Counted from the stretch's first letter, positions 3,251 to 46,980 are shown. The stretch: DNA of 64,000 nt from Leptolyngbyaceae cyanobacterium (GCA_965263355.1 CBDHHL010000035.1:18255-82254); one strand, 5' to 3'. Made by a program: numbers and translations. Notes: a model not told the origin generated them from the sequence alone.

Positions 3251-3315
3251 CAGGAAACGGCTTAGCCTGTCAGCATTCTAGCCTAAAGTTGCATAAGCAA
3301 CCGTTGTATATACAA

Positions 3316-8870: not shown

Positions 8871-9195
8871 AGATGGTGTTGGCTGCCTTAGATTGCCAAT
8901 AGCGGTACTTTTTAATAGCAGAATCAAAGCACTCTTTAAGAGTTCCGTTGACTTGATTTCGTAGGGGTTGCCATGATCTGTCTTTGGTGTAGTTTGTAAC
9001 CACTTCAAAGAAAACCTCATATCCTGGCTGACCAATCCAGTTAACTCCGTATCTTGTGCCGACAATCTCAATGCAGTTAGTGCCAACGGCCTTGAGTTGA
9101 AAGTTTTGATTTTCTGCAAGAGCCTTTAGTTCGGGCATTTGCTGCAAAAAAAGCAACTGGTTGGACTGACGAAAATCAGAAGGACGCATAATCAT
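8869..9195 (-). CDS. Hypothetical protein
   Basis: 108-aa ORF with AGGAG RBS upstream. Confidence 0.65.
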   Translation of the reverse strand: MIMRPSDFRQSNQLLFLQQMPELKALAENQNFQLKAVGTNCIEIVGTRYGVNWIGQPGYEVFFEVVTNYTKDRSWQPLRNQVNGTLKECFDSAIKKYRYWQSKAANTI

Positions 9196-9282
9196 TTCTC
9201 CTTTTTGTTATGCTGCTCAGGCTTTTTCGGCTATGTCCTTTTGGGTGAGCCGGTGCGTGCCCTGCTTGCTTTGTTACTAACA

Positions 9283-9325
9283 AGTATGCCTTTTTTATTT
9301 TCAGATGTCAAGTGTTTTCTTGACA
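9283..9325 (-). promoter_or_regulatory. Sigma70-type promoter with palindromic operator
   Basis: TTGACA-17nt-CATACT; palindrome at 9306-9325. Confidence 0.75.
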
Positions 9326-9330
9326 AAAAA

Positions 9331-9825
9331 TCAGACTAATAAATCCATCCTGTAATTTTCGGCTTCCCTCACAAAGTACGATAGTCCATGGCGCAAACAG
9401 AAAGAATAAGCAACGTCAGCAGCCATATCATTTAGCATGATGTCTCTTCCGCCCCAACGGATTGAATATCCTTTCTTATTTTTCTTCAGCTGGTAGCCAC
9501 TTACAAGATCTCTATTTTTCTTAAGCCCAGTCACAAGGACTAGGTACTCACATACAAATTCGTGCCATGTTTTTTCTTGTGCCGAATTGACAGACAGTAG
9601 GCTTTCTATGGCTTGCTGCCTTTTTGATTTCGGCTTGATGGTTGTTTCCTCCACTGAAACTATCGCTCCATACTTAGCCGCGATCGCCATGGCTTCTTTT
9701 TGGTCTTTAGCCTGGATAAACTCAATCGCATAGAAAAGATTTTCGGATTCTTCCCACGATCTATCGCCCACTAGCCCAAGCTGTCTAGGTGGGATTTGTG
9801 TTTTGACTTTAAATACTTTTGCCAT
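9331..9825 (-). CDS. Hypothetical protein
   Basis: 164-aa ORF with GAGG RBS. Confidence 0.65.
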   Translation of the reverse strand: MAKVFKVKTQIPPRQLGLVGDRSWEESENLFYAIEFIQAKDQKEAMAIAAKYGAIVSVEETTIKPKSKRQQAIESLLSVNSAQEKTWHEFVCEYLVLVTGLKKNRDLVSGYQLKKNKKGYSIRWGGRDIMLNDMAADVAYSFCLRHGLSYFVREAENYRMDLLV

Positions 9826-9849
9826 TGCTCGGCCTCAATTACACTTCAA

Positions 9850-9923
9850 ATGCTAAACGATAGCTTTTCAGGTGTCAAGTAATTTCTTGACTATTTGCAA
9901 AATGAATTTTGCTTTGCTATAGT
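9850..9923. promoter_or_regulatory. Divergent promoters sharing an operator
   Basis: - strand TTGACA-17-TAGCAT; + strand TTGCAA(9895)-17-TATAGT(9918); operator TGTCAAGTAATTTCTTGACT at 9873-9892. Confidence 0.7.
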
Positions 9924-9947
9924 CCAGATGTGAATATTAAGATTGAC

Positions 9948-10217
9948 ATGAAATTAAGCGAATTCATTGAGGCACTGCCAGACCTTTTGATTGAATGGAG
10001 GAAGTCAGAAGTCCCTGTCAAGGCGCAAGCCGCTAGAGCGTTGGGGTTAAATAGCAGGCAAGGGATTGATGAAAGGGAAAAGAAGCTCCCTAACGCTCAG
10101 CTTGGCTCTATATTGGAGTATGTAAAAATGCTCGAAAAAGAGTCCAATAATAGTCCAGCGGTAATCATACTGCCAATAAAAAGCTTGACAGAAAAGACTT
10201 CTGGCGATGTTGATTAG
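9948..10217 (+). CDS. XRE-like HTH transcriptional regulator (candidate repressor of the operator cassettes)
   Basis: LIEWRK...KAQAARALGLNSRQGIDEREK...LGSILEY HTH pattern. Confidence 0.6.
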   Translation: MKLSEFIEALPDLLIEWRKSEVPVKAQAARALGLNSRQGIDEREKKLPNAQLGSILEYVKMLEKESNNSPAVIILPIKSLTEKTSGDVD

Positions 10218-10269
10218 TTGCCCTGGACGCAGCTAGTCAAGAAAAGAAAGAAGAACATTAAGGAGAGAA

Positions 10270-10527
10270 ATGGAAATAAATTATTCTTTCAAGTTCCCAT
10301 CTAGTGAGGCGGTTGAGAACGTGAAGGCTCTGGCTGCAGAATTTCAGATTGAAATGCCTGAGGCTCTTGCTTATCAGTTCACTGGATTGCTCACAGCATT
10401 GGGGGACGAGCAAAGGCATGAGTCAATCGATCAAGAGGCATGGCTAAATGTTGCTATGCAAGCTGTTGCCAGAGATGGCCTGCTGGCGTTCCCAATGGTT
10501 GAAGAAGTCTACCTCAATGGTTTTTAG
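10270..10527 (+). CDS. Hypothetical protein
   Basis: 85 aa, strong AAGGAG RBS. Confidence 0.6.
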   Translation: MEINYSFKFPSSEAVENVKALAAEFQIEMPEALAYQFTGLLTALGDEQRHESIDQEAWLNVAMQAVARDGLLAFPMVEEVYLNGF

Positions 10528-10650
10528 CCATGGGATTAACGCAGTGTAAAAACTTGGCGGTTTGTCTTTTTATCCATACATATATACACACACAATTAAT
10601 TAGGTGTGTGCTAAATTAAAAGGGTAGTTGAGAAACGGAATTACTTAAAA

Positions 10651-10953
10651 ATGACTAACGACTTTTGGGAAGCAAAAATTGCAGAAAGACAATGGTTAGA
10701 GAAAGCTGCTGACGAGCAAAGATTGCTCAATTCAACTGACTGGGGTAGTGAGGGCTGCGAAAGTTTTTCACAGATTGTCAAAAATTGCATTGAGCGGGGG
10801 TCTGGAGCTACTCGCTTTAAGTCCTCTGTTTTTAAGGACTGTTCTTTCAGCGATGCAATCGATGAAGCGCTTGTCGAGCTAGGTTTGAGCGCTGACGAAA
10901 TTCAACTACCGAGTTTTAAGGACGCGAATGACGAATTCGTCATTCAGTTTTAA
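10651..10953 (+). CDS. Hypothetical protein
   Basis: 100-aa ORF. Confidence 0.6.
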   Translation: MTNDFWEAKIAERQWLEKAADEQRLLNSTDWGSEGCESFSQIVKNCIERGSGATRFKSSVFKDCSFSDAIDEALVELGLSADEIQLPSFKDANDEFVIQF

Positions 10954-10954
10954 T

Positions 10955-11143
10955 ATGACCACAAAACCCCGCAATCCCCGCAACGCCGGGGCAAAGCCAT
11001 TGGGAGGCGAGCCCAGGCAACGGACTAACATCATGCTGGACGTAGGGCTAAAGGCTGAAGCGGCAGACAAGGCAGCCGAGCTGGGATTAAGCCTTAGTCA
11101 GCTCATTAATGAGCTAATCAGCGAGTTTCTGAAAGCCACATAG
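10955..11143 (+). CDS. Ribbon-helix-helix DNA-binding protein
   Basis: RTNIMLD...KAAELGLSLSQLINELI RHH pattern. Confidence 0.7.
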   Translation: MTTKPRNPRNAGAKPLGGEPRQRTNIMLDVGLKAEAADKAAELGLSLSQLINELISEFLKAT

Positions 11144-11176
11144 TACGTTTGCTAAATTTGTAAATACCAAGGGAGA

Positions 11177-11563
11177 TTGATTATGCCTGTAAACTCTGGG
11201 ATTGGGTACGTAGCTGCTCACGACGAAGAAACTAAAGTCGAAAACGACGACTGCGTGATTTCTTGGGAAGGAGGTTTTGAAAGCAAAATACCTGAAAAGT
11301 ATATCGCTCTACTCTACTCAGACGAGCAAAGTATTTTCACTGAAAACCAGCATCCAAATCTTGAAGTTTTCGATAACGACAGTCTGTCAGACGCCGTTTT
11401 CTATCAAGAATTTATCGATTGGCTAGCGACCGATCTGAGCAACATTGATGTGCAGGTAAAAATGATTAAAGGCAATCATTTTGAGTACTATTACTGCGAG
11501 AGAGATTACTTTAATTCGTTTAATTGGCTTAAATACGCGGAAATGCATAAATCATTAAGTTGA
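11177..11563 (+). CDS. Hypothetical acidic protein
   Basis: 128 aa, GGAG RBS. Confidence 0.55.
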   Translation: MIMPVNSGIGYVAAHDEETKVENDDCVISWEGGFESKIPEKYIALLYSDEQSIFTENQHPNLEVFDNDSLSDAVFYQEFIDWLATDLSNIDVQVKMIKGNHFEYYYCERDYFNSFNWLKYAEMHKSLS

Positions 11564-11802
11564 CCCGCTGCCCAAAACCGTCGGGCCTAAAAGCTTGGCG
11601 GTTTTTGTTTCTCACAAATGTCTTCCCTAACCCACCAGCACCCACCCTCAGGCTTCTCTACGAACAGATAACCAGGCATCGACCATGGGGGAGGCTTCAC
11701 CGTGCCATATCTCGGCCTAGGTTTACTGTTGCGTTGTGGGCCTGGGGAGTCGGGGAGACGTACGCGGTTCATCGGCAATGCAAGAACTTTATGAATAATT
11801 AG

Positions 11803-11831
11803 TTGACGTTTCTAGATAGGGGCACTATAGT
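11803..11831 (+). promoter_or_regulatory. Sigma70-type promoter
   Basis: TTGACG-17nt-TATAGT upstream of 11862. Confidence 0.65.
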
Positions 11832-11861
11832 AGAGACACAGAACAAACGGAGTAAAAAACA

Positions 11862-12137
11862 ATGGCTAACGACAACACTATCCAAATCAAAACAACTGGC
11901 AAATATACACTTCGCCTAACTGACGTAGATGCTGGTCGTTTCTTTGGATGGGATGACGCTTTTGACCATCCGTTCGCTACTGTCTACGTTGACACACTGC
12001 CTGACACGAGTCAGGGTGATTTGCTTGTGGATACCGCAGAAAGTGGCGGAGCTGTCTATAAGGGGCTAATACTAGCCACAATTCCCGGATGTGAAAGCCC
12101 CAACACTTACCAACTACAAGTTGAATATCAACTCTAA
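11862..12137 (+). CDS. Hypothetical protein
   Basis: 91 aa, promoter and GGAG RBS. Confidence 0.65.
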   Translation: MANDNTIQIKTTGKYTLRLTDVDAGRFFGWDDAFDHPFATVYVDTLPDTSQGDLLVDTAESGGAVYKGLILATIPGCESPNTYQLQVEYQL

Positions 12138-12167
12138 CCACATGGGCGCATAGCGCCCTTTATTGTT

Positions 12168-12410
12168 ATGGAAATCAAAAAACTAGGTTACTCGTCAAAC
12201 CCTTGGCGGCTCGTCGCTAACGACGGCAGAGAGATATACATCCCAGAACTAATCACTATCCCCAAGCCGGGGAGGTTCGGGCGAACAGACAGATCACAGA
12301 CCATTGTCAATATGCCTGTTTGTGGCAAAACAAAAAAAGAATGCACAGAAAAAGCGTTAAGCCTGCTTTCTAAATTGGTTGATCTACATCTGAACAAACC
12401 CAATGACTAA
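12168..12410 (+). CDS. Hypothetical protein
   Basis: 80-aa ORF overlapping the next gene. Confidence 0.55.
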   Translation: MEIKKLGYSSNPWRLVANDGREIYIPELITIPKPGRFGRTDRSQTIVNMPVCGKTKKECTEKALSLLSKLVDLHLNKPND

Positions 12411-12636
12411 ACCCGCCAGAGGCAAACACCCCAACAGTAAAGCCAACCTAATTCATGAAGGAGTTGCCCCCCAACGACACAACGAGCCCAAATCCAAATT
12501 AGTGCGCTTTAAGCTAACCCCCACTGACTATGCCGCCGTTATGGCCTTACTCAACGACGCAAACATCGACAGCCCACGGGCGTTGTTTGAGGCGTTGAGT
12601 GATGGGGTAATCAGTCTTTCGCCCATCAGTAAATAG
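12403..12636 (+). CDS. Small putative DNA-binding protein (RHH-like)
   Basis: RGKHPNSKANL N-terminus, then a beta strand (LVRFKL) and two helices. Confidence 0.5.
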   Translation: MTKPARGKHPNSKANLIHEGVAPQRHNEPKSKLVRFKLTPTDYAAVMALLNDANIDSPRALFEALSDGVISLSPISK

Positions 12637-12708
12637 GCTAAAATAAAAGCACCGCCTGACTTTGGGAGCTGGGCGGTGCTTTTGATGTAACAATGGAAAT
12701 TACTACCT

Positions 12709-17098: not shown

Positions 17099-20000
17099 AT
17101 GGACACCTATTTCCCAGAGCCCATATATAGAGAAGATAGCCTTGTCAATCAAGCGACTGGGGTAGGTTTGTCGAAGTATGACCCTAGCCAGTCGTGGGAT
17201 ATATCTTGGCAAAATATACGAACTCTGAACCGATATCAACAATCGGCCCTCGCTTCAATCGGGCTGATGCATCGCATTGTTTATACCCTACCTAATGCCT
17301 GCTGCCGAAAGTGGGGAACGGTGACATTAGATGGGGGTTCTCAGGATGACATAGAGAGCATAAATAAAGCACTGATCAATATCCCTGTCATTGACTCAAG
17401 GCGACGACGCGGTGGGGGAGGGTTTCGATCTGCCATTCGTATGGCGTTGGGGCTAGCCTTTAAGACCGGCAATGGAGCTCTCATCCTGGATGCTGATGAC
17501 GGGAGACCTTTGTATGAACCGTTGGATTTAAATAATCTCAAAAAGATTAAGTCCCTTCGTGTAGCCAGCAAATGGCAAGTGGTGCCGTACTTTTTCCATA
17601 ATGATGGGCCTTCGTATAGCCATTATCAGGTGTTCGCCCAGGGGTTCTATACCCAGGGCGACGTTTTCAATATGTCGGGCACTATTATTCATCGGTCTCG
17701 TGTTTTCTGGTTCACGGGCATCGAAGAGGACGACGAGTTTATAGGCAATCGGTATAGCCTCCCCGGCACCGACCGCAGTATTTTAGACCTCGTTGTTGAA
17801 GCGTTCCTGGAGTATTACGGCGGCATCAAGGGGGCTGGGAGAATGATCCAGGACTTCGATGTGATTGTCCACAAGATCAAAGGCTTGGCTGAAATGCTCC
17901 AAGCTGATTGCGATGGGGCCACTAGTAACGCTAAGTCGATGGTGGCTAACAGCGCTGCGATGAATGCCAAAACACGGTCTGCTTTCCGGTCTTACGTGGC
18001 TGATATGGACCAAGAGGCAATTGAGCACGTCACTCGACAGGTAGGCGGCTATGATGGACTGCTGCAGACAATTAAAACGTATCTGTTGATCAATACCCCA
18101 TATCCCCCGGCTGTATTGTTTGGAGAGTTCAGTGCTGGGTTAGGGGCATCTGGCGAATCTCAAGAAGAGCACGCCCTATGGAACGATACAATTTCCCAGG
18201 AACACGAGGCTAAAATCAGCCCCAATATGGTTAGCCTAGACCCTGAGTTTACTGGCATCCTGGGCGTTGTCATGGCTCAACAAGAGGGGCCAACTAAAGG
18301 CGAGATTTTAGACAATGTTGGATGGAAGCCGAATAAGTTATTTGAACCAACAGCCCAGCAGCAGGCAGCTTTAGAAAAAGATAGGGCAGTAATTATCCAA
18401 ACGCTAGGTGCTATTGATAAACGTTTTGTTTCCAACGCAATTTTGAGTCATTACGGCGGGCAAGAGTACCAGGATACAATCACGCTAACCGAAGAGTACA
18501 AGGCAGCATTGGAAGCTGAGGCAAGATTGGAACAAGACCCGCCTGGAGACGAGCCAGAAAAGCCTGGACCAGGTGGCGATGATGCTGAATTGAGCCCTGC
18601 TGACGGGGGAACAGAAGACGATGTTGACTTGACTCAGTTTGCTGAATTTATTGACTTTGATAAAACTGACAGCTGGGGGACTGATGAGTTATTCCCCCAT
18701 TTGGATGCTAAGAAAAAATCCAAGTTACAGGTTGGCGATACCAAAACTAAAAACGGCAAAACTTACGTTTTCAATGAAAATCGAAGATGGGCATTAGAGC
18801 GAAAGGGCGGGAGTAAGCCTAAGGCTAAATCGAAGGCATCGAGCAAAGCCAAAAAGAAAGGGCCACAGCCTGGAGACACCAAGCAAAGTAAGTCTGGTAA
18901 GACGATGGTGTTTAACGGCGAGACTCGTCGTTGGCGGTTGCAAAAGCCTGAAGATGTCAGGCGGACTAAGGCTGAGTTAAAGAAAGCCGTTGAGGATAAA
19001 GGGACTAAGTTGACTCCCGATGAGGCGAGGGAGGTGATTGAAGAGAGTTCAACTGGGCGGACTGCTGCCCGAGAAAAAGCACCCGAAATTTCAGTTGAGG
19101 AATACAAGAAGCTTGATGCTGTTGATCAGCAATTAGCCGCCCCAGGGCAAGAAAAGCCGCCCAAAGATGCGCCGCTGTCTGCCAAGGAGTTCAACCCCTA
19201 CGCTAATCCTGACTTAACTCCGCAGGATTTTGTAAAAGTTTGGGCCGCCCGAGTGCGCATTGAAGCCCAGGACAATCCGGCAAAAGCAGAGGGGGCATCA
19301 GAACTTGATTTGATCGCCACAGATTTTTTCGGGAGTTCTGTCAAGAAGAAAGAAGACCCTAACGCATGGCGAAAATCGTTCGCAGAGTCCGGCCTTAAAA
19401 AGGCAGCTTATCGACGAGCGGTAGCATCCGCCATAGACGAGGGGTTTGTCCCTCCTGACGAGAACTGGATTAAAGTTAATTTAAGTAAAAAGCAGGCTTC
19501 TGCTTACGAGAGGAATAAAGCCCAACTAGAAAAAGACAGGGAAATAGTCAAAGCAGCTGACAAAGCGATTAAATACCCTTTAATGACACGCGATGAAGCC
19601 GAAGGATATAAGCCAACGTTGTCTAGGGCGGAAGCAGAGGCATATGCAAAGAACTCATTTTTGGGTGATCTCACAATGTATCACGGGAATTCTCAATCTG
19701 TAGTTGATTCTATCCGCAATGAGGGCTCTCAACCTGAGCTAAACAGAAAGGGTATTTATGGGCAAGGAACATACTTTGCGACATTAAAGCATACGGCAGA
19801 GACTTATGCAGGCAGCCTGGAAGAAAATTCTACTGCAGCGAATGGCTTGATTGCCGTTAAAACTAAAGTCAAAAACCCTTATATTACGACCATAAATGAG
19901 CTGGATAAAGTTTCAGCCTGGTTCTCTGGAGGGCCTTTCGGTGCAGAGCAATCAAATGGGATCAATAGTGCCGCACTAACAGAATATATGCGAGCCAAAG

Positions 20001-20281
20001 GTCATGACTCAATTTTTCTGAGAGACCATGGTTATTTGGTTTCTTTCGACGGAAGGCAGACAGTCGTTTATGAGCATGAAGATGTAGGAAAAACAACAAA
20101 AAAGGGGAAGGAGCTAGAGGCAAGACATGGAGCGGTTGAACTTCGAAACGGAGGCATGGAAACAGAGAGCAATGCTGTCTCGAAATTCTACAAAGACACC
20201 GCATATTCACAGTTAAAGACAACAGACACAAGAGACTACGGTAATCCCGAGGATGCGGACGATGAGGGGCTATTTTTCTAG
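17099..20281 (+). CDS. DUF1073-type portal protein with a long C-terminal extension including an ADP-ribosyltransferase-like domain
   Basis: Portal motifs (IIHRSRVFWF, PPAVLFGEFSAGLGASGE) in about aa 1-480; C-terminal YHG...GIYGQGTYFA...A.TYA...KNPY...GHDSI. Confidence 0.8.
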   Translation: MDTYFPEPIYREDSLVNQATGVGLSKYDPSQSWDISWQNIRTLNRYQQSALASIGLMHRIVYTLPNACCRKWGTVTLDGGSQDDIESINKALINIPVIDSRRRRGGGGFRSAIRMALGLAFKTGNGALILDADDGRPLYEPLDLNNLKKIKSLRVASKWQVVPYFFHNDGPSYSHYQVFAQGFYTQGDVFNMSGTIIHRSRVFWFTGIEEDDEFIGNRYSLPGTDRSILDLVVEAFLEYYGGIKGAGRMIQDFDVIVHKIKGLAEMLQADCDGATSNAKSMVANSAAMNAKTRSAFRSYVADMDQEAIEHVTRQVGGYDGLLQTIKTYLLINTPYPPAVLFGEFSAGLGASGESQEEHALWNDTISQEHEAKISPNMVSLDPEFTGILGVVMAQQEGPTKGEILDNVGWKPNKLFEPTAQQQAALEKDRAVIIQTLGAIDKRFVSNAILSHYGGQEYQDTITLTEEYKAALEAEARLEQDPPGDEPEKPGPGGDDAELSPADGGTEDDVDLTQFAEFIDFDKTDSWGTDELFPHLDAKKKSKLQVGDTKTKNGKTYVFNENRRWALERKGGSKPKAKSKASSKAKKKGPQPGDTKQSKSGKTMVFNGETRRWRLQKPEDVRRTKAELKKAVEDKGTKLTPDEAREVIEESSTGRTAAREKAPEISVEEYKKLDAVDQQLAAPGQEKPPKDAPLSAKEFNPYANPDLTPQDFVKVWAARVRIEAQDNPAKAEGASELDLIATDFFGSSVKKKEDPNAWRKSFAESGLKKAAYRRAVASAIDEGFVPPDENWIKVNLSKKQASAYERNKAQLEKDREIVKAADKAIKYPLMTRDEAEGYKPTLSRAEAEAYAKNSFLGDLTMYHGNSQSVVDSIRNEGSQPELNRKGIYGQGTYFATLKHTAETYAGSLEENSTAANGLIAVKTKVKNPYITTINELDKVSAWFSGGPFGAEQSNGINSAALTEYMRAKGHDSIFLRDHGYLVSFDGRQTVVYEHEDVGKTTKKGKELEARHGAVELRNGGMETESNAVSKFYKDTAYSQLKTTDTRDYGNPEDADDEGLFF

Positions 20282-20499: not shown

Positions 20500-23445
20500 A
20501 TGACAACCACAGCGCTCGCCCCAAAACGAAGAACTGACAACCGCCCTTGCGAAGGCAGCTGGAGTGGAACATTGGGTAGCTGCGTGAGATCGAAGGCTCG
20601 CAAAAAAGGCCCCAATCTACGGGACGAAGCAACCCGAAAAAAGGCAATCGTCGACTTTATTGATAGTCATTGGGACGAGACGACCGCCCGTGAATGGATT
20701 CAGGATACTAACGAAGGCAGGGGAAAGCCTAAAACCATCCTAAAATGGCTAGACGAAGACTTTCAGGCAACAAAAGAACTAGAGGATTTAGTCAAGAAAG
20801 ATCCAAGCATGGCTGAAAGTGCTATGGGCGCTGATATAGCAGAAATCCAGCAAGAGATTAAAGACAGAAAAGAAAACATCGAATTATATAGAAAATACAT
20901 CAAGTTAGCGCCTCACCTAACTGATGATGACATCGACGAATTCGCTTACAAAGCTGAGGATGAAGACGAAAAATACAGAAAAAAGCCTCGCACTGATGAT
21001 GCTACTCCTGTCAAGCGCATTTTGAAATGGCAAGGCTTTGAGATTGGGATACAGTACCTGCCCTTTGAGAAACGTCATGGCCGTGTTTTACCTGCTGCTT
21101 ATGGTCACTTCCGTCGTACCCGTGGAGCTGATGGGATGGCTGTTGATGTGTACGTGGGGACCAACCTGGCTAGCCCTCTGGTGTTCGTAGTGGATCAGGT
21201 GATCGATGGGGCATTTGATGAGGAAAAGATGATTATCGGCGTTAATGATGCAGCTGAAGCACGCATGATTTATGGACAGGCCATGCCTAAAGAGTTTTTT
21301 GGTGGGATGCGTGAAATCCCATTGGCTGAGCTAGAAGAATATCGAGTGCCCATGCTGACTAAATCTGACGCTAAACCCCGACGACGCAAGAAAGGCTGTA
21401 ACGATGACTGTGAGTGCGAACCATGCCAAAAGGCTAGGAAGGATGCGTTGGATGCGATGTTAAAGGATCACATAGATGTGTTGACAATGAAACTAGACGC
21501 CAAAACCGGCACGCCCTGCAATAACCAACGGGGGTGGGTAGGGACTAAGCCAGGGTGTAAGCGCGCTAAGCCTGGGACAGCCACCAGGGTGCGCAGAATT
21601 GAGCGTAAACGGATGGGCAAGAACCCCGAGCCTCCGAAAGCTCGTACCATCACTGCTGCCGAGAAAGCAGAGCGCAGGGGACAGCTAAGCCTATTCCCAG
21701 CCGACAAGCCTCAGCCAGTACGCAGCCAGAAGAAAAAGGCACCGAGAGGGAAAGACCTGGCATTTGAATCGGCCTACAAAAAAATACCCAAGTCAGAGGA
21801 AGGCGGGGAATCATTGGACCCGAACGCGCCTCAATCATTTGGGGACTGGGTGGCAGAGGGTAAAAATGCTCAGCATGAACGGATAAGAAATAACCCTGAT
21901 GACCGCAGTAAGTGGTATCGAAACGCTGACGATTTCTTTATCTCAGAACTAAAAGGTTACGACACCAATAAAAACGGGAAAGTCACCAAGGTAGAGATTT
22001 TTGGTTTAAAGCCGATGCCTCTGAAGTCGGCATACCGGTTGGCCACAGAAAAGTACAACCAAAAGTACGGCAGCTCCCAGAAGAACGCAGCTAAGCGGAT
22101 GAGCCAGGGTGGAGCCACGCTGAAGATAAAAGAACCTCCTGCAGAAATAATCGAAGCTGCCAAAAAGAAAGCTGCTGCGGGGGAACGCAAAAACCTAACC
22201 AACGAATTCAACCAAAAGATTAAGGCGGTTCGCGCTATCGAAGACCCCGACGAGCGAGCCCGTCAAGCTCGTGAGTTAGCCATGGAGGCAGAAAAACTAG
22301 AGTCTCGCTGGGGTCGCGACCAGGGGTTAAGCAGCATCCGCAAAAAGGCCGCTAACTTATCCCGTGAGATGTTCCGGCGCACCGAAGCCCCACAGCCTAA
22401 GCGGGCCAATACGCCTGTTCGGCTAAGCAAAAAACAGGGCGAATCAACTCTATTCCGTGGGCCTAATGGCAGCTACTTTAGTATCGACTCTCGTGAATGG
22501 GACGCAGCGGTCGACGCACTAGCTAAGGTTGATGCGAAGAAAGCCGGGACACCTTGTAATGCCCAGAGGGGCTGGGTGGGGATGAAAAAGCCCGAGGGGA
22601 AAGGCTGTAAACGAGCAAAAAAAGGCACTGCAAAACGGGTAAAAGAAGTTAGGGGGAAGCGTACAAGCAAGAAAAATGCTCAGCCAAAGAAGATCGCTCA
22701 GCCGACCGACGTATTGACTCCAGAAATTAAAAAGCGACTTCTTGCGCACAAAAACAGGCCAATGGTGTCGCTAGAAGATATTTCAGCGAAAAGGAAAGAA
22801 GGTGAATCTATCGCCGCTGAAGTCAGAAGTGCGCTAAAAGGGAAAGCCGACCCTGGGCTTTGGCTAAAGAATGGGTTATTTGAAATTGCAGACATAAAAG
22901 ACTTTGGAGTTAAAGACGAAGATATTAGCTCAACTGAGTCCGTCGATAAGTTCTACAAAAATCTTGCTCGACAGATCCATCCAGACAGGGGTGGGAGTGA
23001 TGAGCAAATGGCTAACTTGAATGACCTAAGGCGTCAGCTGAAGTCTATTTCCAGACTCAGCTCCGAGACTAAGAAGCCACAGCCAAAACGGAAAGCTAAG
23101 GCCAAGAAAAAACGCAGTGATGCACAAGGCACCCTTATCTCAACCCTCCCTCGCCGCAATGGCAAGGTGAAATATCGTGGCCAGTGGTGGACGATTGATA
23201 AGGACGTTCCTGCTACTCAGAAGGGCAAAAAGCGTCAGGTTCTTGCCAAGAAAGGGGATCGGGTGATGCTCGTAGCCTTTGGGGATGACAGTTATCGACA
23301 TAATTACAGCCCTGAAGCCAAAGCAAATTACCTGACCCGATCTGCAGGCATCCGAGATAAGGATGGAAACCTGACCAAGAATGACCCATGGAGTCCTAAT
23401 TATTGGTCTCGTAAAGTGTTATGGCCTAAGGGGGACGCTGCATGA
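20500..23445 (+). CDS. Lys/Arg-rich multidomain (polyvalent) head-cluster protein: PPase-like domain, J-domain-like segment, viral C-terminal domain
   Basis: YGHF..T.GADG.AVDVYVG...FDEEK.IIG (PPase-like); FYKNLARQIHPDRGGSDEQMANLN (HPD motif); VAFG...NYLTRS...SPNYWSRKVLW. Confidence 0.75.
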   Translation: MTTTALAPKRRTDNRPCEGSWSGTLGSCVRSKARKKGPNLRDEATRKKAIVDFIDSHWDETTAREWIQDTNEGRGKPKTILKWLDEDFQATKELEDLVKKDPSMAESAMGADIAEIQQEIKDRKENIELYRKYIKLAPHLTDDDIDEFAYKAEDEDEKYRKKPRTDDATPVKRILKWQGFEIGIQYLPFEKRHGRVLPAAYGHFRRTRGADGMAVDVYVGTNLASPLVFVVDQVIDGAFDEEKMIIGVNDAAEARMIYGQAMPKEFFGGMREIPLAELEEYRVPMLTKSDAKPRRRKKGCNDDCECEPCQKARKDALDAMLKDHIDVLTMKLDAKTGTPCNNQRGWVGTKPGCKRAKPGTATRVRRIERKRMGKNPEPPKARTITAAEKAERRGQLSLFPADKPQPVRSQKKKAPRGKDLAFESAYKKIPKSEEGGESLDPNAPQSFGDWVAEGKNAQHERIRNNPDDRSKWYRNADDFFISELKGYDTNKNGKVTKVEIFGLKPMPLKSAYRLATEKYNQKYGSSQKNAAKRMSQGGATLKIKEPPAEIIEAAKKKAAAGERKNLTNEFNQKIKAVRAIEDPDERARQARELAMEAEKLESRWGRDQGLSSIRKKAANLSREMFRRTEAPQPKRANTPVRLSKKQGESTLFRGPNGSYFSIDSREWDAAVDALAKVDAKKAGTPCNAQRGWVGMKKPEGKGCKRAKKGTAKRVKEVRGKRTSKKNAQPKKIAQPTDVLTPEIKKRLLAHKNRPMVSLEDISAKRKEGESIAAEVRSALKGKADPGLWLKNGLFEIADIKDFGVKDEDISSTESVDKFYKNLARQIHPDRGGSDEQMANLNDLRRQLKSISRLSSETKKPQPKRKAKAKKKRSDAQGTLISTLPRRNGKVKYRGQWWTIDKDVPATQKGKKRQVLAKKGDRVMLVAFGDDSYRHNYSPEAKANYLTRSAGIRDKDGNLTKNDPWSPNYWSRKVLWPKGDAA

Positions 23446-39628: not shown

Positions 39629-40717
39629 ATGATGCATAGAATCCCAGAGCTACTTAAGCGGAACAGCCTGATAGGGGCTGCTATTGTTGGGCCAGACGGA
39701 AAGTTCTGGGATGTAAATGAGACTCTGTGTGAAATACTGGGTTATCAACGAGAAACGTTGCTGCGCCTAACGTTCCAGCAGATCAGCCATCCTGAAGATC
39801 TAACGCCTCAGGTCAACCCATTCCGCAGCGTAATCAATGGAGAACTTAAATCTTTCACGCTGAAAAAGCGCTACAAGCATGGACAAACAGCAGAATGGAT
39901 CTCTTGCACGTTGCACTGCGAAGGATTCCATTCTGAGTCTGGAGAATTCCTTTATTTCTTTTCCCAAGTCAGTAAGCTTGGCGACAAAGAGCTGACAGAG
40001 GTTGAAACACAAAGGCTTTCAGAAATAAAATACGCAATCAACAACAACGGATTTGCCCTGCATTATCAGCCGATAGTTGACCTGAAAACCGATGAGACCG
40101 TTGGTTATGAGGCGTTGTCACGATGGGCAAAAGACAATGAATTAATCTTCCCAGGGGATTTCTTGCCTTTACTGAGAAAGGCAAACAGTGAACACTTACT
40201 GTGCTACTGGGTAATTGAGCAAACCCAGGCAGATTCAATCAAGATTGGCCAGTGGATCAGCTTTAATATCAGCCCATTCACTCTAGCTAGAGCAGATTGG
40301 CACGATCAAAAGCTGCCTGTTAGAGGGCATATGGAGATATTGGAGACTGAGGCTGTTTCTGAGGAGATTCAGAGCCGGATTCAGTCAGCTAGGCGGACAG
40401 GCGTAAAGATCGCCCTGGACGATTTTGGCACCGGATACTGCAGCTACGATAGATTGCTGAAAGGCCAAGTTGACCTAGTAAAGCTCGATAGATCTATTAT
40501 TAGTGGCCTGCCTGCTCGCGAATCCAGAGTAATGGTTGACGCAATTGTGGCGCTATCGCAAAAACTCAGCATCAAAGTTATCGCTGAAGGCGTGGAAACC
40601 CAGCAACAGGCCGACATGTTGAAAGCAATCGGCTGTGACATGGCGCAGGGCTATTTGTTCGGTCGGCCTGCGCCACTACCCGCGATCACTCGCTCTTCGT
40701 CGGGGGCCATTCACTAG
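39629..40717 (+). CDS. PAS-EAL c-di-GMP phosphodiesterase
   Basis: PAS (VNETLCEILGY...ISHPEDL); EAL motifs YQPIV, GYEAL, FNISP, EILE, DDFGTGY, KLDRS, AEGVE, QGY. Confidence 0.9.
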   Translation: MMHRIPELLKRNSLIGAAIVGPDGKFWDVNETLCEILGYQRETLLRLTFQQISHPEDLTPQVNPFRSVINGELKSFTLKKRYKHGQTAEWISCTLHCEGFHSESGEFLYFFSQVSKLGDKELTEVETQRLSEIKYAINNNGFALHYQPIVDLKTDETVGYEALSRWAKDNELIFPGDFLPLLRKANSEHLLCYWVIEQTQADSIKIGQWISFNISPFTLARADWHDQKLPVRGHMEILETEAVSEEIQSRIQSARRTGVKIALDDFGTGYCSYDRLLKGQVDLVKLDRSIISGLPARESRVMVDAIVALSQKLSIKVIAEGVETQQQADMLKAIGCDMAQGYLFGRPAPLPAITRSSSGAIH

Positions 40718-42275: not shown

Positions 42276-42479
42276 TCAATCACCATTGTTTTTTAACGCG
42301 TCAAACAGGTTACTGACTGCTAATGCAGATAGCTCTATCCTGTTCGTCACCCGACCGTCCGTCGTCTCTATTAGCCTTCCCTGAGAAGTCTCAGGGTCTA
42401 GGTAAAGTGTGATTATCTGCTCGACTGATTGTGAGTCTACGGACTCACGATAACTATGTCGAGATATAATTTCTATCAT
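42276..42479 (-). CDS. Hypothetical protein downstream of the CRISPR array
   Basis: 67-aa ORF. Confidence 0.45.
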   Translation of the reverse strand: MIEIISRHSYRESVDSQSVEQIITLYLDPETSQGRLIETTDGRVTNRIELSALAVSNLFDALKNNGD

Positions 42480-42557
42480 TTTGGAAGAATGGGCTCATTT
42501 ACACAACTAGTATCCCAAGCTAGCTGAGAGTAATAACTAGAGTCCATGTCTTCTTTG

Positions 42558-42886
42558 GTTTCAGCCCCTTGAAACGGATTGAAGCCTTGGCAGCGTATAG
42601 CACCATGCCCCGCAAATCAGGGAACGTTACAGTTTCAGTCCCTTGGTAGGGGTTGAAGCCTTGGCAGCTATCTGCATCATTACTTACTGCATTACTGCGA
42701 TGATGTTTCAGTCCCTTGGTAGGGGTTGAAGCTTTGGCAGCTCAGGACCGCATAGACCAGCTCAAGCCAATAACAGGTTTCAGTCCCTTGGTAGGGATTA
42801 AAGCTTTGGCAGCTTGGCTCATGGCTAATAGTTCGTTTCCACCAGGTGCGTTTCAGTCCCTTGGTAGGGATTAAAGCTTTGGCAGC
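42558..42886 (-). CRISPR. CRISPR array, 5 x 37-nt repeats, 4 spacers of 35-37 nt; consensus GCTGCCAAAGCTTTAATCCCTACCAAGGGACTGAAAC
   Basis: Repeats at 42558-42594 (most degenerate), 42632-42668, 42705-42741, 42777-42813 and 42850-42886; internal TCCCT/AGGGA hairpin; 3' GAAAC; divergence increases leftward, implying - strand orientation. Confidence 0.96.
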
Positions 42887-43018
42887 GTAAACAGCTGCAT
42901 CCCTTTAGCCGCAAGGCTTTTATGAGCGATTCTGGCAAAGCTCAGAAAATGGCAATTTTGCCAAAGCTTTAATCCCTGTTTTTCAAGGTTCTTCTTTTGG
43001 CCTCGCTTAGCTTTGCCA
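42887..43018 (-). promoter_or_regulatory. CRISPR leader with inverted motifs and a 19-nt anti-repeat
   Basis: tggcaaagctcag (42933) / cttagctttgcca (43006) inverted pair; 42959-42977 is an inverted copy of repeat nt 3-21. Confidence 0.65.
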
Positions 43019-43208
43019 AAAAAAGTTGAGACTGTTCGCCATAGATCCGGCGAATCTATAAGGGCCTTACGGACTCCTTTTGCTCCTATCTTGCCTTTCG
43101 GCTGGTGTTTATCGGTTTCCCGACAAAAGATACCCATAGCCCCCTAGAGAACCTTAGCGCTGAAGCCATCCAACAACGTTTCCGCTGCCTTGTCGCCCAA
43201 ACTGCGAT
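43019..43208 (-). ncRNA. Candidate tracrRNA/scaffold RNA (about 190 nt)
   Basis: Upstream TTGGCG-17-TAATAT promoter; GNRA hairpins; CAGTCTC complementary to repeat GGGACTG; ends in a U-run. Confidence 0.6.
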
Positions 43209-43214
43209 GTCCTT

Positions 43215-43243
43215 ATATTAGCGTGTTATATTTTGTACGCCAA
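43215..43243 (-). promoter_or_regulatory. Promoter for tracr/array transcript
   Basis: -35 TTGGCG (43238-43243), 17 nt, -10 TAATAT (43215-43220). Confidence 0.55.
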
Positions 43244-43259
43244 GTATTTTTTAATATAA

Positions 43260-43460
43260 ATGGGAAAAGAGAATAGAGAAGGCAGGATTTACGCGCGCAT
43301 CAAGCAAAGCCGTAAACAAAAGCTAGAGCAGTATTGTAGACTTTGGGATATATCGATAGCAGACCTATTGGAACGCTTTATTGATATGCTGCCAGAGCTG
43401 CCGCAAAACGACGTACAAAATAATGAAGACGATCAAGGTAAAAGTCCAGCCGACTCCTGA
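43260..43460 (+). CDS. Ribbon-helix-helix regulator upstream of the effector
   Basis: RIYARI...KQKLEQYC...SIADLLERFIDML. Confidence 0.7.
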   Translation: MGKENREGRIYARIKQSRKQKLEQYCRLWDISIADLLERFIDMLPELPQNDVQNNEDDQGKSPADS

Positions 43461-45144
43461 AACACTGATTAAATACGAGAAAATTTGCAGAGAGCTTGAA
43501 TGGTTGTGGAACTATGTGAGGGCCGTAGCCTTACATAATCACTGCCTTGAATGGTATGCGTGGGCCGAGGGGAAAGGCGCTGACTTGTCAGGCTGCATTA
43601 GAACGCCGTTACGCTTTTCAAAGAGTGGCGGTTGGAATGGAGCGACTTGTCAGATTGCTAAAGGGGGTCCGTATTTTAAGAAGTCAGATAAAGCTCCTTT
43701 AATCCACTATGACGATGGCAAAACGAAACAAGGCTATGAATTAGTAGCTGGGGATAAGCCATATGAGCCAATAAAGCCAGAGCGTCATAGATATCGCGAA
43801 GTCTCTTATTCAAGTAAAGGCAACTCAATGACCCGTTCCAGTAAAAGCACCTCAATAACCCGCGAGCTAAAAGGAAAAGGTTGGGGCCTAGACAATATGG
43901 CGTTACTAAATGCGTCACGAAGTTCTCAGGGTCTTGATGAATTAACTTGCCATAGCGATTTTGTTGGAGGGCTACTAGCTGACTTTGAAGTTGCTTGGAA
44001 GGCTTATTTAGACGGGAAACTGCCCGCCAGAAAGCAGCCAAAGTATAAGGACGGCAAGCAGTGTAAAATTAGCACGTTGAACAATAATCAAAAAGCCATC
44101 CCGTTCAAAAAAGGACAATTCGACGGTCAAGGCTTAGTTTTAGAACCGTGCGATCGCAGCTATTCAAAAAGACTCGAAGGCTATGTAATAAAGACTTACA
44201 AACTGATATTAAAACCGAGTGGCTTCTATCTATGCCTAACTACTCAAAGTGAAGCGGAAGAAGAAAATAGATTAGAACTTAAACGACAAAAAAGAGTTTT
44301 AACCGCTATCAAGAAAAAAGTTATTGATGGCATTAAAGGGGAAAAGGAGCAAGCCAAGGCGTTAGCTAACAGTGAAGACTATCAAACGGCATTAGCCAAG
44401 AAAAAGTCAATAGAAAATGAGCTGCCATACTTGCTAATAGAAGACTCAAAATGCGCTAAACGAACCGGGCATATGGCGGGCATTGACCCTGGCGTTAAGG
44501 CAATTGTAGCGACTGACGAAGGTCATTTATTTAATCCTAACGAAAGCAGACAACGAATACACAATCATATTGAAAAGCTGCAATCCAAGCTTGATATTAT
44601 GATTGAGAAAAATGATAAGCGGCTAGGACAAAAATGGAAGGGAGGGCAGCGGCGAGCCTCCAATAACGAGCAAAAACTTAGGGGCAAAATATCCAGACTT
44701 CATGAGCGAGCCGTTAATAGTTCAAATGCTTTCAATCATAAATTATCAACCAGGTTAGCCAGAACTTATGATGTCATTGCTTGGGAGGCTACGGCGTTAA
44801 CTAACATGGGGAGGCAGACAACGCCTAAATTAGCTGAAGATGGAAGTTATTACGAGCAAAACGGCAGAACAGCTAAGGCAGGATTGAACAGATCCTTGAA
44901 AATAGCCTGTATGGGCGACCTTAGAACTAAAACAAAATCTAAATTAGAGGAAGCCGGGAAATTATACATAGAGACGGAGGCTAGATACTCATCACAACGC
45001 TGTCATTGTTGCGGGGGAAAAGGCATCAGGCCAGCCCAAGATACGTTTATTTGCGTAAATGAGAGCTGTAGCCTATTTGAACAGAAGCAAAATGCAGATG
45101 TTAACGCCGCAAGGAACCACAAGAAAAGAGGAATTACAGAATAA
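43423..45144 (+). CDS. cas12: Compact type V CRISPR effector (Cas12/TnpB superfamily), 573 aa, RuvC intact
   Basis: MKTIKVKVQPT N-terminus; RuvC-I AGIDPG, RuvC-II IAWE, Zn finger SQRCHCCG...FICVNESC, RuvC-III NADVNAARN; adjacent array. Confidence 0.85.
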   Translation: MKTIKVKVQPTPETLIKYEKICRELEWLWNYVRAVALHNHCLEWYAWAEGKGADLSGCIRTPLRFSKSGGWNGATCQIAKGGPYFKKSDKAPLIHYDDGKTKQGYELVAGDKPYEPIKPERHRYREVSYSSKGNSMTRSSKSTSITRELKGKGWGLDNMALLNASRSSQGLDELTCHSDFVGGLLADFEVAWKAYLDGKLPARKQPKYKDGKQCKISTLNNNQKAIPFKKGQFDGQGLVLEPCDRSYSKRLEGYVIKTYKLILKPSGFYLCLTTQSEAEEENRLELKRQKRVLTAIKKKVIDGIKGEKEQAKALANSEDYQTALAKKKSIENELPYLLIEDSKCAKRTGHMAGIDPGVKAIVATDEGHLFNPNESRQRIHNHIEKLQSKLDIMIEKNDKRLGQKWKGGQRRASNNEQKLRGKISRLHERAVNSSNAFNHKLSTRLARTYDVIAWEATALTNMGRQTTPKLAEDGSYYEQNGRTAKAGLNRSLKIACMGDLRTKTKSKLEEAGKLYIETEARYSSQRCHCCGGKGIRPAQDTFICVNESCSLFEQKQNADVNAARNHKKRGITE

Positions 45145-45347
45145 TGCAAGCCTCAATCACCATCTCCATACGCTCAAAAACCCTGGCTAAAGCTCAACAG
45201 CTAAACATCCCGGTTGAAGTGATTTTGAGCGAGGAGCTATCAAGGGTGGCCGACAGGCTCCTGCTGCCTTTGATTCAGGAATACGGAATGAACTGCGATA
45301 GAACCGATTACGTCCCAAGCTGGATAGAGCAATCGGCCCAGCCATAA
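45144..45347 (+). CDS. Small RHH/antitoxin-like protein
   Basis: SITISI...AKAQQLNIPV..IL.EEL; TAATG coupling to the effector. Confidence 0.5.
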   Translation: MQASITISIRSKTLAKAQQLNIPVEVILSEELSRVADRLLLPLIQEYGMNCDRTDYVPSWIEQSAQP

Positions 45348-45519
45348 GATGGATGCCGATTTTCAGTTGCCAGCAGCTGCATTCACTAACTCACGAATGG
45401 CGAGAAAGATCTAACCATTATGCCGTCTTAGTTGTGCATTATTTCCTAAGCCAGGGCTAAACCCTTGGCGTACAACAATGATGATATCATGCTTTGTGGT
45501 GTGTTAAGCAGGTTTAACG

Positions 45520-46980
45520 TTGACCGCAAACAGTAGTTTCGACCCATCTCAGGCCATTGGGTATTATCGTGTTTCGACGCAACGGCAGGAGCAAGAGGGC
45601 CATAGTCCCGAGCGTTATTTAGAGCGTCTTGAAGCGGTCGGCATTGCTCCTACTGATATTTATTCTGATGCTGAATCCGGCGGCATATTCGAACGCAAGG
45701 ATTTACAAAAAGCATTAGCCAGGTTGAAAAATCCTAATAAGAAATACTTTGTAGTCCCGTATCACTCCAGGGGTCATCGAGATATTGGAGTATGGGTAAA
45801 AATCAGGGATGCACTTTTAGAAAATGACTGCCAATTAATCGAGCTGGACAAAGGGATCAAGCCTATCGATCTGACCAGTGCAGCCGGGAACCTGCAAGCT
45901 AACCTGGATGCCACATTTGCACAGCATCAACGAGACCAAGCACGGGAGCACAGTGTAAAAGGGCACGCATTCAGGCGTAGTCAAAACAGGATAGTTAATC
46001 CGCCATTTGGCTATAAAAAGGACAGCGATCAGCGGCTAGTAATTAATGATGACATTTTCCCTGGTTCTGACGGAAAGACTTATCGGGAAATCGCTATCGA
46101 AATGATCGATACGTTAATTGAGCTTGGAGGGTATCGGGCCACTATTCGGGCAATGTGCGGTCGTTATGGCGAAAAGCATCCTGAGAGATGGGGAGTCGCT
46201 AAAAACTTCCCTGTCAGTACTAAGGGATTTATGAGGTGGGTCCAGTCTCCCGTGATTCGTGGTTATCTGGTTGATTCCCCTGGCAAGCCTAATGAGCTAG
46301 TCAGGAAGGGAGGCCATGAGGCGATTATGGATCCTGACCGATGGCGAGCTGTGCAAGTAACTGTCGAAAATATTGCCTCTGCCCCTAATCCGATGAACGA
46401 TGGGAAGCCCAGAAGCAGAAAGCCATTGGCTGGCAAGATTAAATGCGGCTTATGCGGTGGTCGGCATAATAACAGCACAGTCCATAGGCAGGGGAAAACG
46501 TATTCATATCTGGTTTGCCGTGGAGGAGCAGAATCAACCATTAACAGTCGAGTGAAAAGACAGTGCCCTTATAAAAATTCAATTAAAACGGATCAATTCT
46601 TCAAGGAAGTGATTTCACAAGTTTGCGCTAGGGCGCTCGAAATTGCTCAAGAATTTGCTGAGCCGAACACTGAAGTGAACCCAGAAATAATAAAACTCAG
46701 AAACCAGATACAACAGCTACAGGCAATGGCGGATCCGGAATTGAGTGGAGTGATCCAGGTTAAGCAGCAGCAACTATCAAAGCTAGAGCAAGCCACTGGG
46801 CAAGACGTAGATCCAAACGACGTTGACATTTACGAAACGGTTGCTGCTGATCCTGAATTCTGGGAAGAACTAGCCCCCAGTGAACTAAGGATAATTCTTG
46901 ACTCACTAATCAAGCAGGTTGTTGTTCATGGGAAACAACTTTCGCCACAACAACGGGTAAAGGTTCAATTTTACCGTTAG
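45520..46980 (+). CDS. Large serine recombinase (phage integrase)
   Basis: GYYRVST catalytic Ser, D..SG, SRGHR, PFGY recombinase domain, Zn ribbon CGLCG...YLVC, coiled coil. Confidence 0.9.
   Translation: MTANSSFDPSQAIGYYRVSTQRQEQEGHSPERYLERLEAVGIAPTDIYSDAESGGIFERKDLQKALARLKNPNKKYFVVPYHSRGHRDIGVWVKIRDALLENDCQLIELDKGIKPIDLTSAAGNLQANLDATFAQHQRDQAREHSVKGHAFRRSQNRIVNPPFGYKKDSDQRLVINDDIFPGSDGKTYREIAIEMIDTLIELGGYRATIRAMCGRYGEKHPERWGVAKNFPVSTKGFMRWVQSPVIRGYLVDSPGKPNELVRKGGHEAIMDPDRWRAVQVTVENIASAPNPMNDGKPRSRKPLAGKIKCGLCGGRHNNSTVHRQGKTYSYLVCRGGAESTINSRVKRQCPYKNSIKTDQFFKEVISQVCARALEIAQEFAEPNTEVNPEIIKLRNQIQQLQAMADPELSGVIQVKQQQLSKLEQATGQDVDPNDVDIYETVAADPEFWEELAPSELRIILDSLIKQVVVHGKQLSPQQRVKVQFYR

Follow-up and report, generated by a model that had tools for sequence, protein, structure and literature searches.

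A probable type V-P (Cas12p) CRISPR-Cas module with an upstream, inverted guide-RNA unit on a phage-like genome in a cyanobacterial assembly

Cas12p, also called 'Cas12 hacker', is the effector of the type V-P systems of CRISPR (clustered and regularly interspaced short palindromic repeats) and CRISPR-associated (Cas) proteins, and it was characterized through biochemistry and cryo-electron microscopy by Wang et al. (10.1101/2025.01.20.633832). In the available text of that preprint, twelve Cas12p proteins of 500-700 amino acids (aa) are described, all metagenome-assembled, of phage origin and with undetermined hosts, eleven of which are more than 70% identical. The same text gives a GTN protospacer-adjacent motif (PAM), a 185-nucleotide (nt) trans-activating CRISPR RNA (tracrRNA), a 37-nt repeat and the catalytic residues D378, E478 and D582; the guide comprises six stems and a pseudoknot termed R:AR-1, in which AAAC of the repeat pairs with G7-U10 of the tracrRNA, and the nuclease is switched on by host thioredoxin, which binds a TB/REC pocket and is transiently disulfide-linked to C127. 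Cyanobacteria and cyanophages are mentioned nowhere in this available text. Here a stretch of 64,000 nt assigned to a Leptolyngbyaceae cyanobacterium (GCA_965263355.1 CBDHHL010000035.1:18255-82254; hereafter the window) is described, in which positions 42558-45144 hold a CRISPR array, a predicted tracrRNA and a 573-aa effector, which quite probably constitute a complete type V-P module of a temperate, probably cyanobacterial phage.

Several other systems resemble the locus in part. Type V-U2 (C2c8) combines a compact TnpB-derived effector with a small array without cas1/2 and is common in cyanobacteria; it has also been reported in the cyanophage vB_AphaS-CL131, whose authors, in the available text of their report, found no tracrRNA (PMC6293099). 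Cas12k, the effector of the type V-K CRISPR-associated transposons, is cyanobacterial and nuclease-dead and works with TnsB, TnsC and TniQ, and its long tracrRNA, which forms a pseudoknot to the repeat 3' end, immediately precedes a short array of the same strand; a PAM-interacting (PI) domain similar to that of Cas12p and a GTN PAM are ascribed to it in the available text of the Cas12p work (10.1101/2025.01.20.633832). TnpB of the IS200/IS605 elements (ISDra2, ISFba1) shares the WED-RuvC-zinc-finger core, and stems 1-4 and 6 of the Cas12p guide resemble the TnpB omega-RNA according to the same preprint text (10.1101/2025.01.20.633832).

The effector gene cas12p lies at 43423-45144 (+) in an open reading frame (ORF) that spans 43381-45144 (587 aa). 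The ATG at 43423 gives a protein of 573 aa starting with MKTIKVKV, an N-terminus kept in the relatives, in which M1 is nearly invariant and K2, K5 and K7 are invariant. Searching the Protein Data Bank with phmmer retrieved Cas12p (9jfs_A) at an E value of 9.9e-107 and 361 bits over query residues 1-57 and 49-570, and a profile of 23 relatives matched the same chain at E 1.2e-248. With the AlphaFold model of the effector, which has a mean predicted local distance difference test (pLDDT) score of 81.5, Foldseek returned 9jg3_A (E 2.8e-43, template modelling (TM) scores 0.75/0.74, 36% identity) and 9jfs_A (E 2.6e-39), with TM scores ranging over 0.70-0.75; both entries are complexes of Cas12p with TrxA, guide RNA and target DNA, and the next fold was ISFba1 TnpB at E 5.8e-12 and TM 0.40. 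An earlier reading of the window from its sequence alone (the sequence-only reading) had assigned to the 573-aa protein three RuvC acidic residues and a zinc finger, and a residue check against 23 aligned relatives bore this out: D355 (GIDPG), E455 (IAWE) and D559 (NADVNAA) stand at a constant offset of 23 from D378, E478 and D582 of Cas12p, the CxxC..CxxC cysteines C527, C530, C544 and C549 are present, and each of these residues is kept in 22 of the 23 relatives. The PAM contacts D197, N261, Q262 and K332 of Cas12p align with D157, N222, Q223 and K287. A long Lys/Glu helical segment before RuvC-I, pointed out in the same reading, matches the two-helix PI domain of Cas12p (helices 277-301 and 307-340 of the model).

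The array of five repeats and four spacers at 42558-42887 on the minus strand, likewise recognized earlier, was recovered by a repeat search and by comparison of repeat ends with homologous loci. The search found a 38-nt unit at 42558-42595, 42632-42669, 42705-42742, 42777-42814 and 42850-42887, with start-to-start spacings of 74, 73, 72 and 73 nt, 84-100% identity to the reference copy and four unique spacers of 34-36 nt each; five evenly spaced copies are far beyond chance. The array is absent from the list of Tandem Repeats Finder, as expected for an array with unique spacers. All five repeats end with GAAAC on the minus strand, and the working repeat is probably 37 nt long. As the minus-strand repeat ends with ..GGGACTGAAAC, as do the repeats of 16 of the 17 homologous loci, the minus strand is the one on which the array is read, which makes the most degenerate copy (42558-42595, 84% identity) the terminal repeat. 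The repeat type found beside homologues, ..AATCCCTnnnnAGGGAyTGAAAC, is the same as that of the window. A putative leader at 42888-42944 (-), between the tracrRNA terminator and the first repeat, holds a GCGGCTAAAG element which by eye is similar to the ..AAGCGGCTGAAA ahead of the relatives' arrays.

Between the array and a small ORF upstream of cas12p, on the same minus strand as the array, a tracrRNA of ~264 nt is predicted at 42945-43208, its 5' end being placed at 43208. The sequence-only reading, right about the array, had missed this second part of the guide system, which was found with a covariance model trained on 14 homologous 5' modules, the window excluded. The model matched 43208-43034 (-) with 39 bits and E 6.4e-10, the next match reaching 13.7 bits, and it matched 23 of 26 homologous loci; beyond the 14 training sequences, these are L002, L004, L081, L086, L087, L090, L094, L095 and L100. 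Compensatory changes occur at 15 of the 23 consensus pairs of the stems in homologous loci, and the window, where the motif is present once on the minus strand at 43208, carries a compensatory CCGC/GCGG to TCGC/GCGA change. The predicted RNA opens with the 5' hairpin AUCGCAGUUUGGGCGA, with GUUU at 43202-43199 (positions 7-10), and continues with structured stems down to 43034. Its 3' half contains an AAGAACC motif from 42993, a CAGAACC-type motif being conserved in the relatives and followed by the anti-repeat, and ends in a terminator-like hairpin (42963-42950) and a U tract. The 19-nt stretch 42977-42959 is taken as the anti-repeat of the window because it is 100% complementary to repeats 4 and 5, the two leader-proximal repeats.

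The pairing of the two RNAs was evaluated against shuffled sequences. For the window, the predicted tracrRNA:repeat duplex has -39.1 kcal/mol, while shuffled repeats average -22.9 and none of 100 is as good; of 14 regions tested (13 loci plus the window), 7 outperformed at least 99 of their own 100 shuffles. When the variable 5' 24 nt of the repeat were considered, 7 of 12 loci had their own repeat as the strongest partner of the tracrRNA region (mean -21.8 vs -16.1 kcal/mol), a preference equalled in 0 of 10000 permutations. GUUU at positions 7-10 and the AAAC end of the repeats agree with the R:AR-1 pseudoknot of Cas12p. In Rfam, no family reached its gathering score in the window, and sub-threshold rows alone were returned for 42400-43300.

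In most relatives, a promoter of the form TTGACA-17-TAATAT/TATTAT is followed by ACCGCAGTTTGGGCGG (L077 and L093 have no clear TTGACA), and the RNA motif begins ~20-35 nt past the stop codon, or ~215 nt in L077. The corresponding promoter of the window would lie at 43215-43243 (-), with TTGGCG as -35 (43243-43238), a 17-nt spacer and TAATAT as -10 (43220-43215). The relatives have gene, tracrRNA and array in this order on one strand, whereas tracrRNA and array of the window are upstream of the gene on the opposite strand. As the guide module is upstream and inverted, its putative promoter stands back to back with a promoter-like site at 43190-43219 (+) serving cas12p and the small ORF. Besides the downstream tracrRNA, three relatives have another copy upstream on the opposite strand, namely L085 (878-998, -), L088 (2409-2529, -) and L093 (603-718, -); L085 and L088 also have a second array next to it, while none was detected in L093, and the inverted position is thus a recurring option; the conserved promoter-tracrRNA unit can sit on either side of the Cas12p gene. 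It had been argued earlier that the ORF overlapping the effector stop speaks against a TnpB-like RNA downstream. The overlap exists (45144-45347, one base), and the argument is beside the point, since the scaffold RNA is upstream on the other strand.

The whole 64 kb is phage-like. Domain scans identified terminase, portal, head protease, major head protein and D5-type primase, and further phage-type genes encode a superfamily 1 helicase, three DNA methyltransferases, MazG, HNH and a serine integrase. The large serine recombinase at 45520-46980, the sole recombinase found in the window, carries the Pfam domains Resolvase and Zn_ribbon_recom, and its best NCBIfam model is XisF with 259 bits vs a cut-off of 375. 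Together with the array and the 573-aa effector with intact RuvC, these genes uphold the earlier view of a compact type V CRISPR-Cas system on a phage genome. The stated lack of cas1, cas2, cas4 and tnpA was confirmed too: none of the 85 window ORFs of at least 70 aa matched Cas1/Cas2/Cas4 models of PADLOC, and Pfam scans of 6 + 37 window ORFs turned up neither transposase or TnpA nor Cas1/2/4 or Tn7 domains. The phage host is likely cyanobacterial, judging by sequence relationships. The nearest named relatives of the integrase are from Leptothoe sp. (68%) and a cyanobacterium (64%), while the major head protein is uninformative on the host, because its phage relatives are distant (~25% identity; Rhizobium, Planktothrix and Aphanizomenon phages) and no match was present in five cyanobacterial genomes.

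Spacer targets were sought in several collections. The whole array gave no match to phages (blastn, E <= 1), and against plasmids one 28-nt match was obtained, which falls within a repeat rather than a spacer. Five homologue-bearing cyanobacterial genomes yielded just repeat-like matches to other arrays and short matches with E >= 0.1, and in the homologous loci and the window itself nothing exceeded chance matches of 12-18 nt, with no self-target. The plus-strand repeat half starting GTTTCAGTCCC..GGGATTA (window 42777-42814; the 3' half on the minus strand) is 82-93% identical to repeats of other Nostocales arrays, from genomes G002, G004 and G005, and to a stretch of the Picosynechococcus plasmid NZ_CP016482.1; by these matches, the repeat of the window is in part a shared cyanobacterial repeat type. 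The idea that Cas12p arrays share their repeat with host arrays, and hence borrow the host Cas1-Cas2, was considered and is unsupported, as the repeat of the genome's Cas12p array was essentially confined to its own array in 2 of 2 genomes, save one weak extra match in one genome (69% identity, E 2.5e-4, ~16 kb off on the same contig).

Variation of the locus was visible in short DNA-type contigs from three sequencing runs (X1-X3) of one study. Related strains in the three runs are ~90-99% identical to the window and have the same tracrRNA-to-small-ORF junction. Other spacers lie between the same repeats (window 42704-42887), e.g. a 34-nt alternative in X1 and X2, which indicates that the array varies within the population. 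One strain carries an insertion of 31 nt in cas12p at 43573-43583, the site of the length difference in the TB region, and from the differing spacers and this insertion it follows that several related phage strains with different arrays coexist.

Dependence on thioredoxin was assessed by residue comparison and modelling. The counterparts of C127 and I129 of Cas12p are C76 and I78, which do not vary among the 23 relatives; W44 and Y45 are likewise kept in all 23, and W47 in 22 of them. When residues 1-215 were modelled in complex with the Nostoc thioredoxin THIO1_NOSS1, the score was 0.83, whereas the best of three controls had 0.00; 116 of 157 solved complexes and 2 of 215 mismatched pairs attain the mark. 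Between runs, at least 96% of contacts agree, the partner pLDDT is at least 90, and C76 is predicted to contact thioredoxin residues 32-35, in an interface centred on C76 and the thioredoxin active site.

The likeness to Cas12p extends over the full-length sequence and fold, the RuvC triad, the zinc finger, the PAM contacts, the two-helix PI segment and the thioredoxin-contact cysteine, and, by the available preprint text (10.1101/2025.01.20.633832), over 37-nt repeats ending in AAAC, GUUU at tracrRNA positions 7-10, phage carriage and the lack of adaptation genes. The sequence-only reading had instead suggested an uncharacterised V-U/V-F-like branch. An effector of type V-U2 or of another such branch would fit the profile libraries, whose best models are V_cas_c2c8 of NCBIfam (173 bits, E 1.2e-50; matched by 23 of 23 relatives, best E 2e-58) and Cas12u2 of PADLOC (E 1.8e-55), and such a system is reported from a cyanophage, CL131, in the available text of PMC6293099. 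However, the c2c8 score falls short of 350, the cut-off of that family, and the best stretch, residues 355-546 of the 587-aa ORF against positions 255-452 of 457 in the profile, covers just the RuvC/zinc-finger half; the CL131 effector matches 37% of the query at 32% identity, and a tracrRNA, not found in CL131, is clear from sequence in the window. The full-length match, by phmmer, family profile and Foldseek alike, is to Cas12p, so the suggested branch was not borne out and is regarded as highly improbable. Equally, an ordinary IS200/IS605-type TnpB using its own omega-RNA, with an array nearby by chance, would account for the Pfam domains OrfB_IS605 and Cas12f1-like_TNB, for 119 bits with the broad subfamily model guided_TnpB (cut-off 100) and for the frequent annotation of relatives as 'transposase', and in most Cas12p relatives the scaffold RNA does come right after the gene, as in TnpB. 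This is scarcely tenable, given that the IS200_TnpB model scored 53.6 bits vs a cut-off of 425 and that the Pfam and PADLOC scans of window ORFs found no TnpA. In addition, the guide is split into tracrRNA and crRNA array, the REC lobe is larger and no transposon is present; almost every relative has array and tracrRNA alongside the gene, repeat and anti-repeat covary, and covariance and gene searches of the window gave a single scaffold-RNA match, upstream on the other strand, with no second copy of the effector gene or the RNA. Cas12k has the guide arrangement in common with the window and differs in lacking nuclease activity, whereas RuvC of the window is intact; none of its Tn7-like partners appeared in the Pfam scans mentioned above, and its Foldseek match is E 1.9e-4 with TM 0.29.

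Other observations weigh against a complete and active Cas12p module or set the locus apart from the published one. The protein is just 34-36% identical to solved Cas12p, and activity, thioredoxin dependence and PAM are all extrapolated from that distant relative; ~43 residues of the REC/TB region (chain 186-228 of the solved protein) have no counterpart, the C-terminal tail is missing, and 5 of 14 thioredoxin-pocket positions are changed (L51K, W102G, F105A, I110C and V113T). As to the guide, the tracrRNA scores 39 bits where relatives score 21-127 bits (27 matches, 24 of them at least 63), one stem is much enlarged by an insertion ~59 nt longer than in relatives (77 vs 18 unaligned positions), and the promoter agrees with the consensus at 8 of 12 positions, which is under the promoter-scan threshold, so that it is assigned by homology only. 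Moreover, the guide module is upstream and inverted instead of downstream, extra small ORFs flank the gene on both sides, the array is short with a degenerate last repeat, and no protospacer was found among phages, plasmids, the five genomes, the loci and the window. A decaying or repurposed Cas12p that cuts no DNA and perhaps only binds it, e.g. regulating phage or host genes, would be in keeping with the inverted module, the enlarged stem and low tracrRNA score, the weak promoter, the degenerate repeat, the 4 spacers vs 10-25 or more in many relatives, and the missing targets. Decay does occur in the family, as P0023 (534 aa, 246-kb contig) has K/H/E at the triad columns and has lost the zinc finger, and may be a nuclease-dead Cas12p. 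Decay of the window's copy is nonetheless improbable, since its catalytic, zinc-finger and PAM-contact residues and C76 are all intact, the reading frame is open over its full length, the anti-repeat is perfectly complementary to the two leader-proximal repeats, and strains in three runs retain the tracrRNA-to-small-ORF junction with other spacers between the same repeats. A variant whose short REC/TB region works without the host cofactor deserves somewhat more credit, though it too is judged unlikely: the ~43 missing residues and the replacement of W102, F105, I110, V113 and L51 point to it, while the conservation of C76, I78, W44, Y45 and W47 and the complex model, with its predicted interface centred on C76, point away. 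That model shows likeness rather than binding, because the like complex 9jfs is already solved and the pass may reflect it.

If the locus is an active type V-P module, it would operate by analogy with Cas12p. The tracrRNA (from ~43208) and the pre-crRNA would pair via a long duplex, 42993-42959 with repeat positions 3-34, and via a four-base pseudoknot between G7-U10 (GUUU) and AAAC at the repeat 3' end. Cas12p would bind this dual RNA, read a 5'-GTN PAM and unwind the target, and RuvC would cut both DNA strands, after host thioredoxin, bound to the N-terminal REC/TB region around C76, has switched the nuclease on. The most likely targets of the spacers are rival phages or other mobile elements in the same host, and the four of them would be a fixed or slowly changing guide set, since cas1 and cas2 are missing.

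In heterocyst-forming cyanobacteria, photosynthetic electron flow reduces thioredoxin. That thioredoxin gating is ancestral to the whole Cas12p family, the short-REC phage copy of the window and the chromosomal copies of such cyanobacteria included, tying RNA-guided cutting to the light/redox state, is a speculation to which little probability is given; if true, photosynthesis would switch both the nuclease that the phage turns on rival elements and the Cas12p immunity of the host itself.

The distribution of the family was investigated by protein searches. A word-indexed search gave 50 proteins, of which 39 (clusters at 90% identity) are near-full-length with E <= 5e-85 and 34-94% identity, several being encoded on 65-76-kb contigs, and an exhaustive search of 50%-identity representatives gave 34 at E <= 1e-30; the family is thus broader than the twelve described proteins. 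Named sources are Scytonema, Sphaerospermopsis, Nostoc, Cuspidothrix, Nostocaceae and other cyanobacteria, and the cultured Cylindrospermopsis phages RM-2018a and Cr-LKS4 encode full-length homologues (34% identity, 99% coverage) annotated 'transposase'. Linkage of homologues to an array held when checked: in 16 of 17 first-round loci, the array follows the gene on the same strand within ~520 nt (281-513 nt past the stop), with repeats ending in ..TGAAAC or ..TTAAAC, and the sequence of the exception, L081, ends 345 nt past the gene. Among nine second-round loci, three have an array, three contigs end too early, L105 is unclear, and L089 and L100 have no classical array; L088 = L092 and L084 = L101 are duplicate contigs. 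At four loci of cyanobacterial genomes (L001, L003, L004 and L066), Cas12p and tracrRNA are surrounded by genes of ordinary or housekeeping type (UPRTase, ArgJ, IF-3, acetolactate synthase small subunit, G6PD/OpcA, asparagine synthase, response regulator and glycosyltransferase) with arrays of up to 20-25+ spacers, phage genes being absent from these loci and cas1/2/4 from the 6 kb around them. Besides its phage-borne members, the family therefore includes chromosomal Cas12p with long arrays.

By itself, the window locus counts as an ordinary member of a family that was known, with solved structures, beforehand. What is new is modest, namely a divergent shorter member, an inverted guide-module layout, a mapped promoter-tracrRNA unit and evidence that Cas12p is naturally at home in filamentous cyanobacteria and their phages. 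Natural hosts are now at hand for tests of thioredoxin dependence, together with a divergent 573-aa variant for comparison.

Two small ORFs flank cas12p. The upstream one (43260-43460, +, 66 aa) is divergent from tracrRNA and array and overlaps the start of cas12p by 38 nt. It had been called a ribbon-helix-helix gene divergent from the array; the ORF and the divergence were verified and the fold was not, as no Pfam domain matched even at E <= 10 save a meaningless Vezatin match, the single-sequence AlphaFold model consists of two helices, and this model had no Foldseek match. It is possibly a small DNA-binding regulator. The downstream one (45144-45347, +, 67 aa), which overlaps the cas12p stop by 1 nt, shows a weak, non-significant likeness to the antitoxin CcdA (Pfam E 0.21). 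Neither ORF had a tblastn match at E < 0.1 in 24 homologous loci.

The same segment is bracketed by a pair of inverted repeats of 17 nt each. The left arm (43233-43249) overlaps the -35 of the tracrRNA promoter, and the right arm (45459-45475), to which it is complementary at 15 of 17 positions, lies 45 nt upstream of the serine recombinase gene. The pair exactly encloses the small ORF, cas12p and the 67-aa ORF, and inverting this segment would restore the gene order of the relatives. By our estimate, the match is about at chance level for a 4.5-kb region. One X1 contig is without 45453-45510, and no strand-changing joint indicative of an inversion isomer was seen in the contigs of the three runs, which are too short to exclude one. 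Chance, an operator used in common or a scar of recombination could each explain the repeat; in a further reading, given even less weight than ancestral thioredoxin gating, the serine recombinase next door inverts the cas12p cassette and so couples the gene to its guide module or uncouples it.

Further observations were made at homologous loci and elsewhere in the window. The cyanophage tnpB described in the available text of another preprint (10.64898/2026.02.14.705889) is an ordinary IS-type tnpB and was set aside as not relevant. L002 of Nostoc paludosum has a Cas3-like helicase gene (1754-3889; DEAD and Cas3-like_C_2 domains) ~2 kb upstream of its Cas12p gene, which may be part of a neighbouring class 1 system. 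On a 64.5-kb IMG/VR contig (L082/L090), the region 8924-12662 shows a second array of 25+ repeats on the opposite strand, accompanied by a second, TnpB-like effector of 587 aa (HTH_OrfB_IS605, OrfB_IS605 and TNB domains) convergent with the Cas12p locus, so that by their sequences two type V-like systems are placed tail to tail on one viral contig. In L089, from the Cylindrospermopsis phage Cr-LKS4 (OQ625504.1), the 668-aa Cas12p homologue annotated 'transposase' is preceded at 2771-3500 by two tandem units ~364 nt apart, 231 nt of which align at 94%, and L100 was noted likewise. Both L089 units come with a TTGACA promoter and a tracrRNA-like 5' module of their own (model matches at 3009-3123 and 3371-3488), an arrangement which in sequence resembles an array of whole guide RNAs.

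In the window itself, a PAS-EAL protein is encoded at 39629-40717, just upstream of the CRISPR region, and its EAL domain (E 9e-57) marks it as a likely cyclic di-GMP phosphodiesterase. The 1060-aa portal protein (17099-20281) shows a weak C-terminal PARP-like match at E 7.7e-4, under the cut-off, and the 981-aa minor head protein beside it (20500-23445) contains an 'InPase' domain at E 4e-20.

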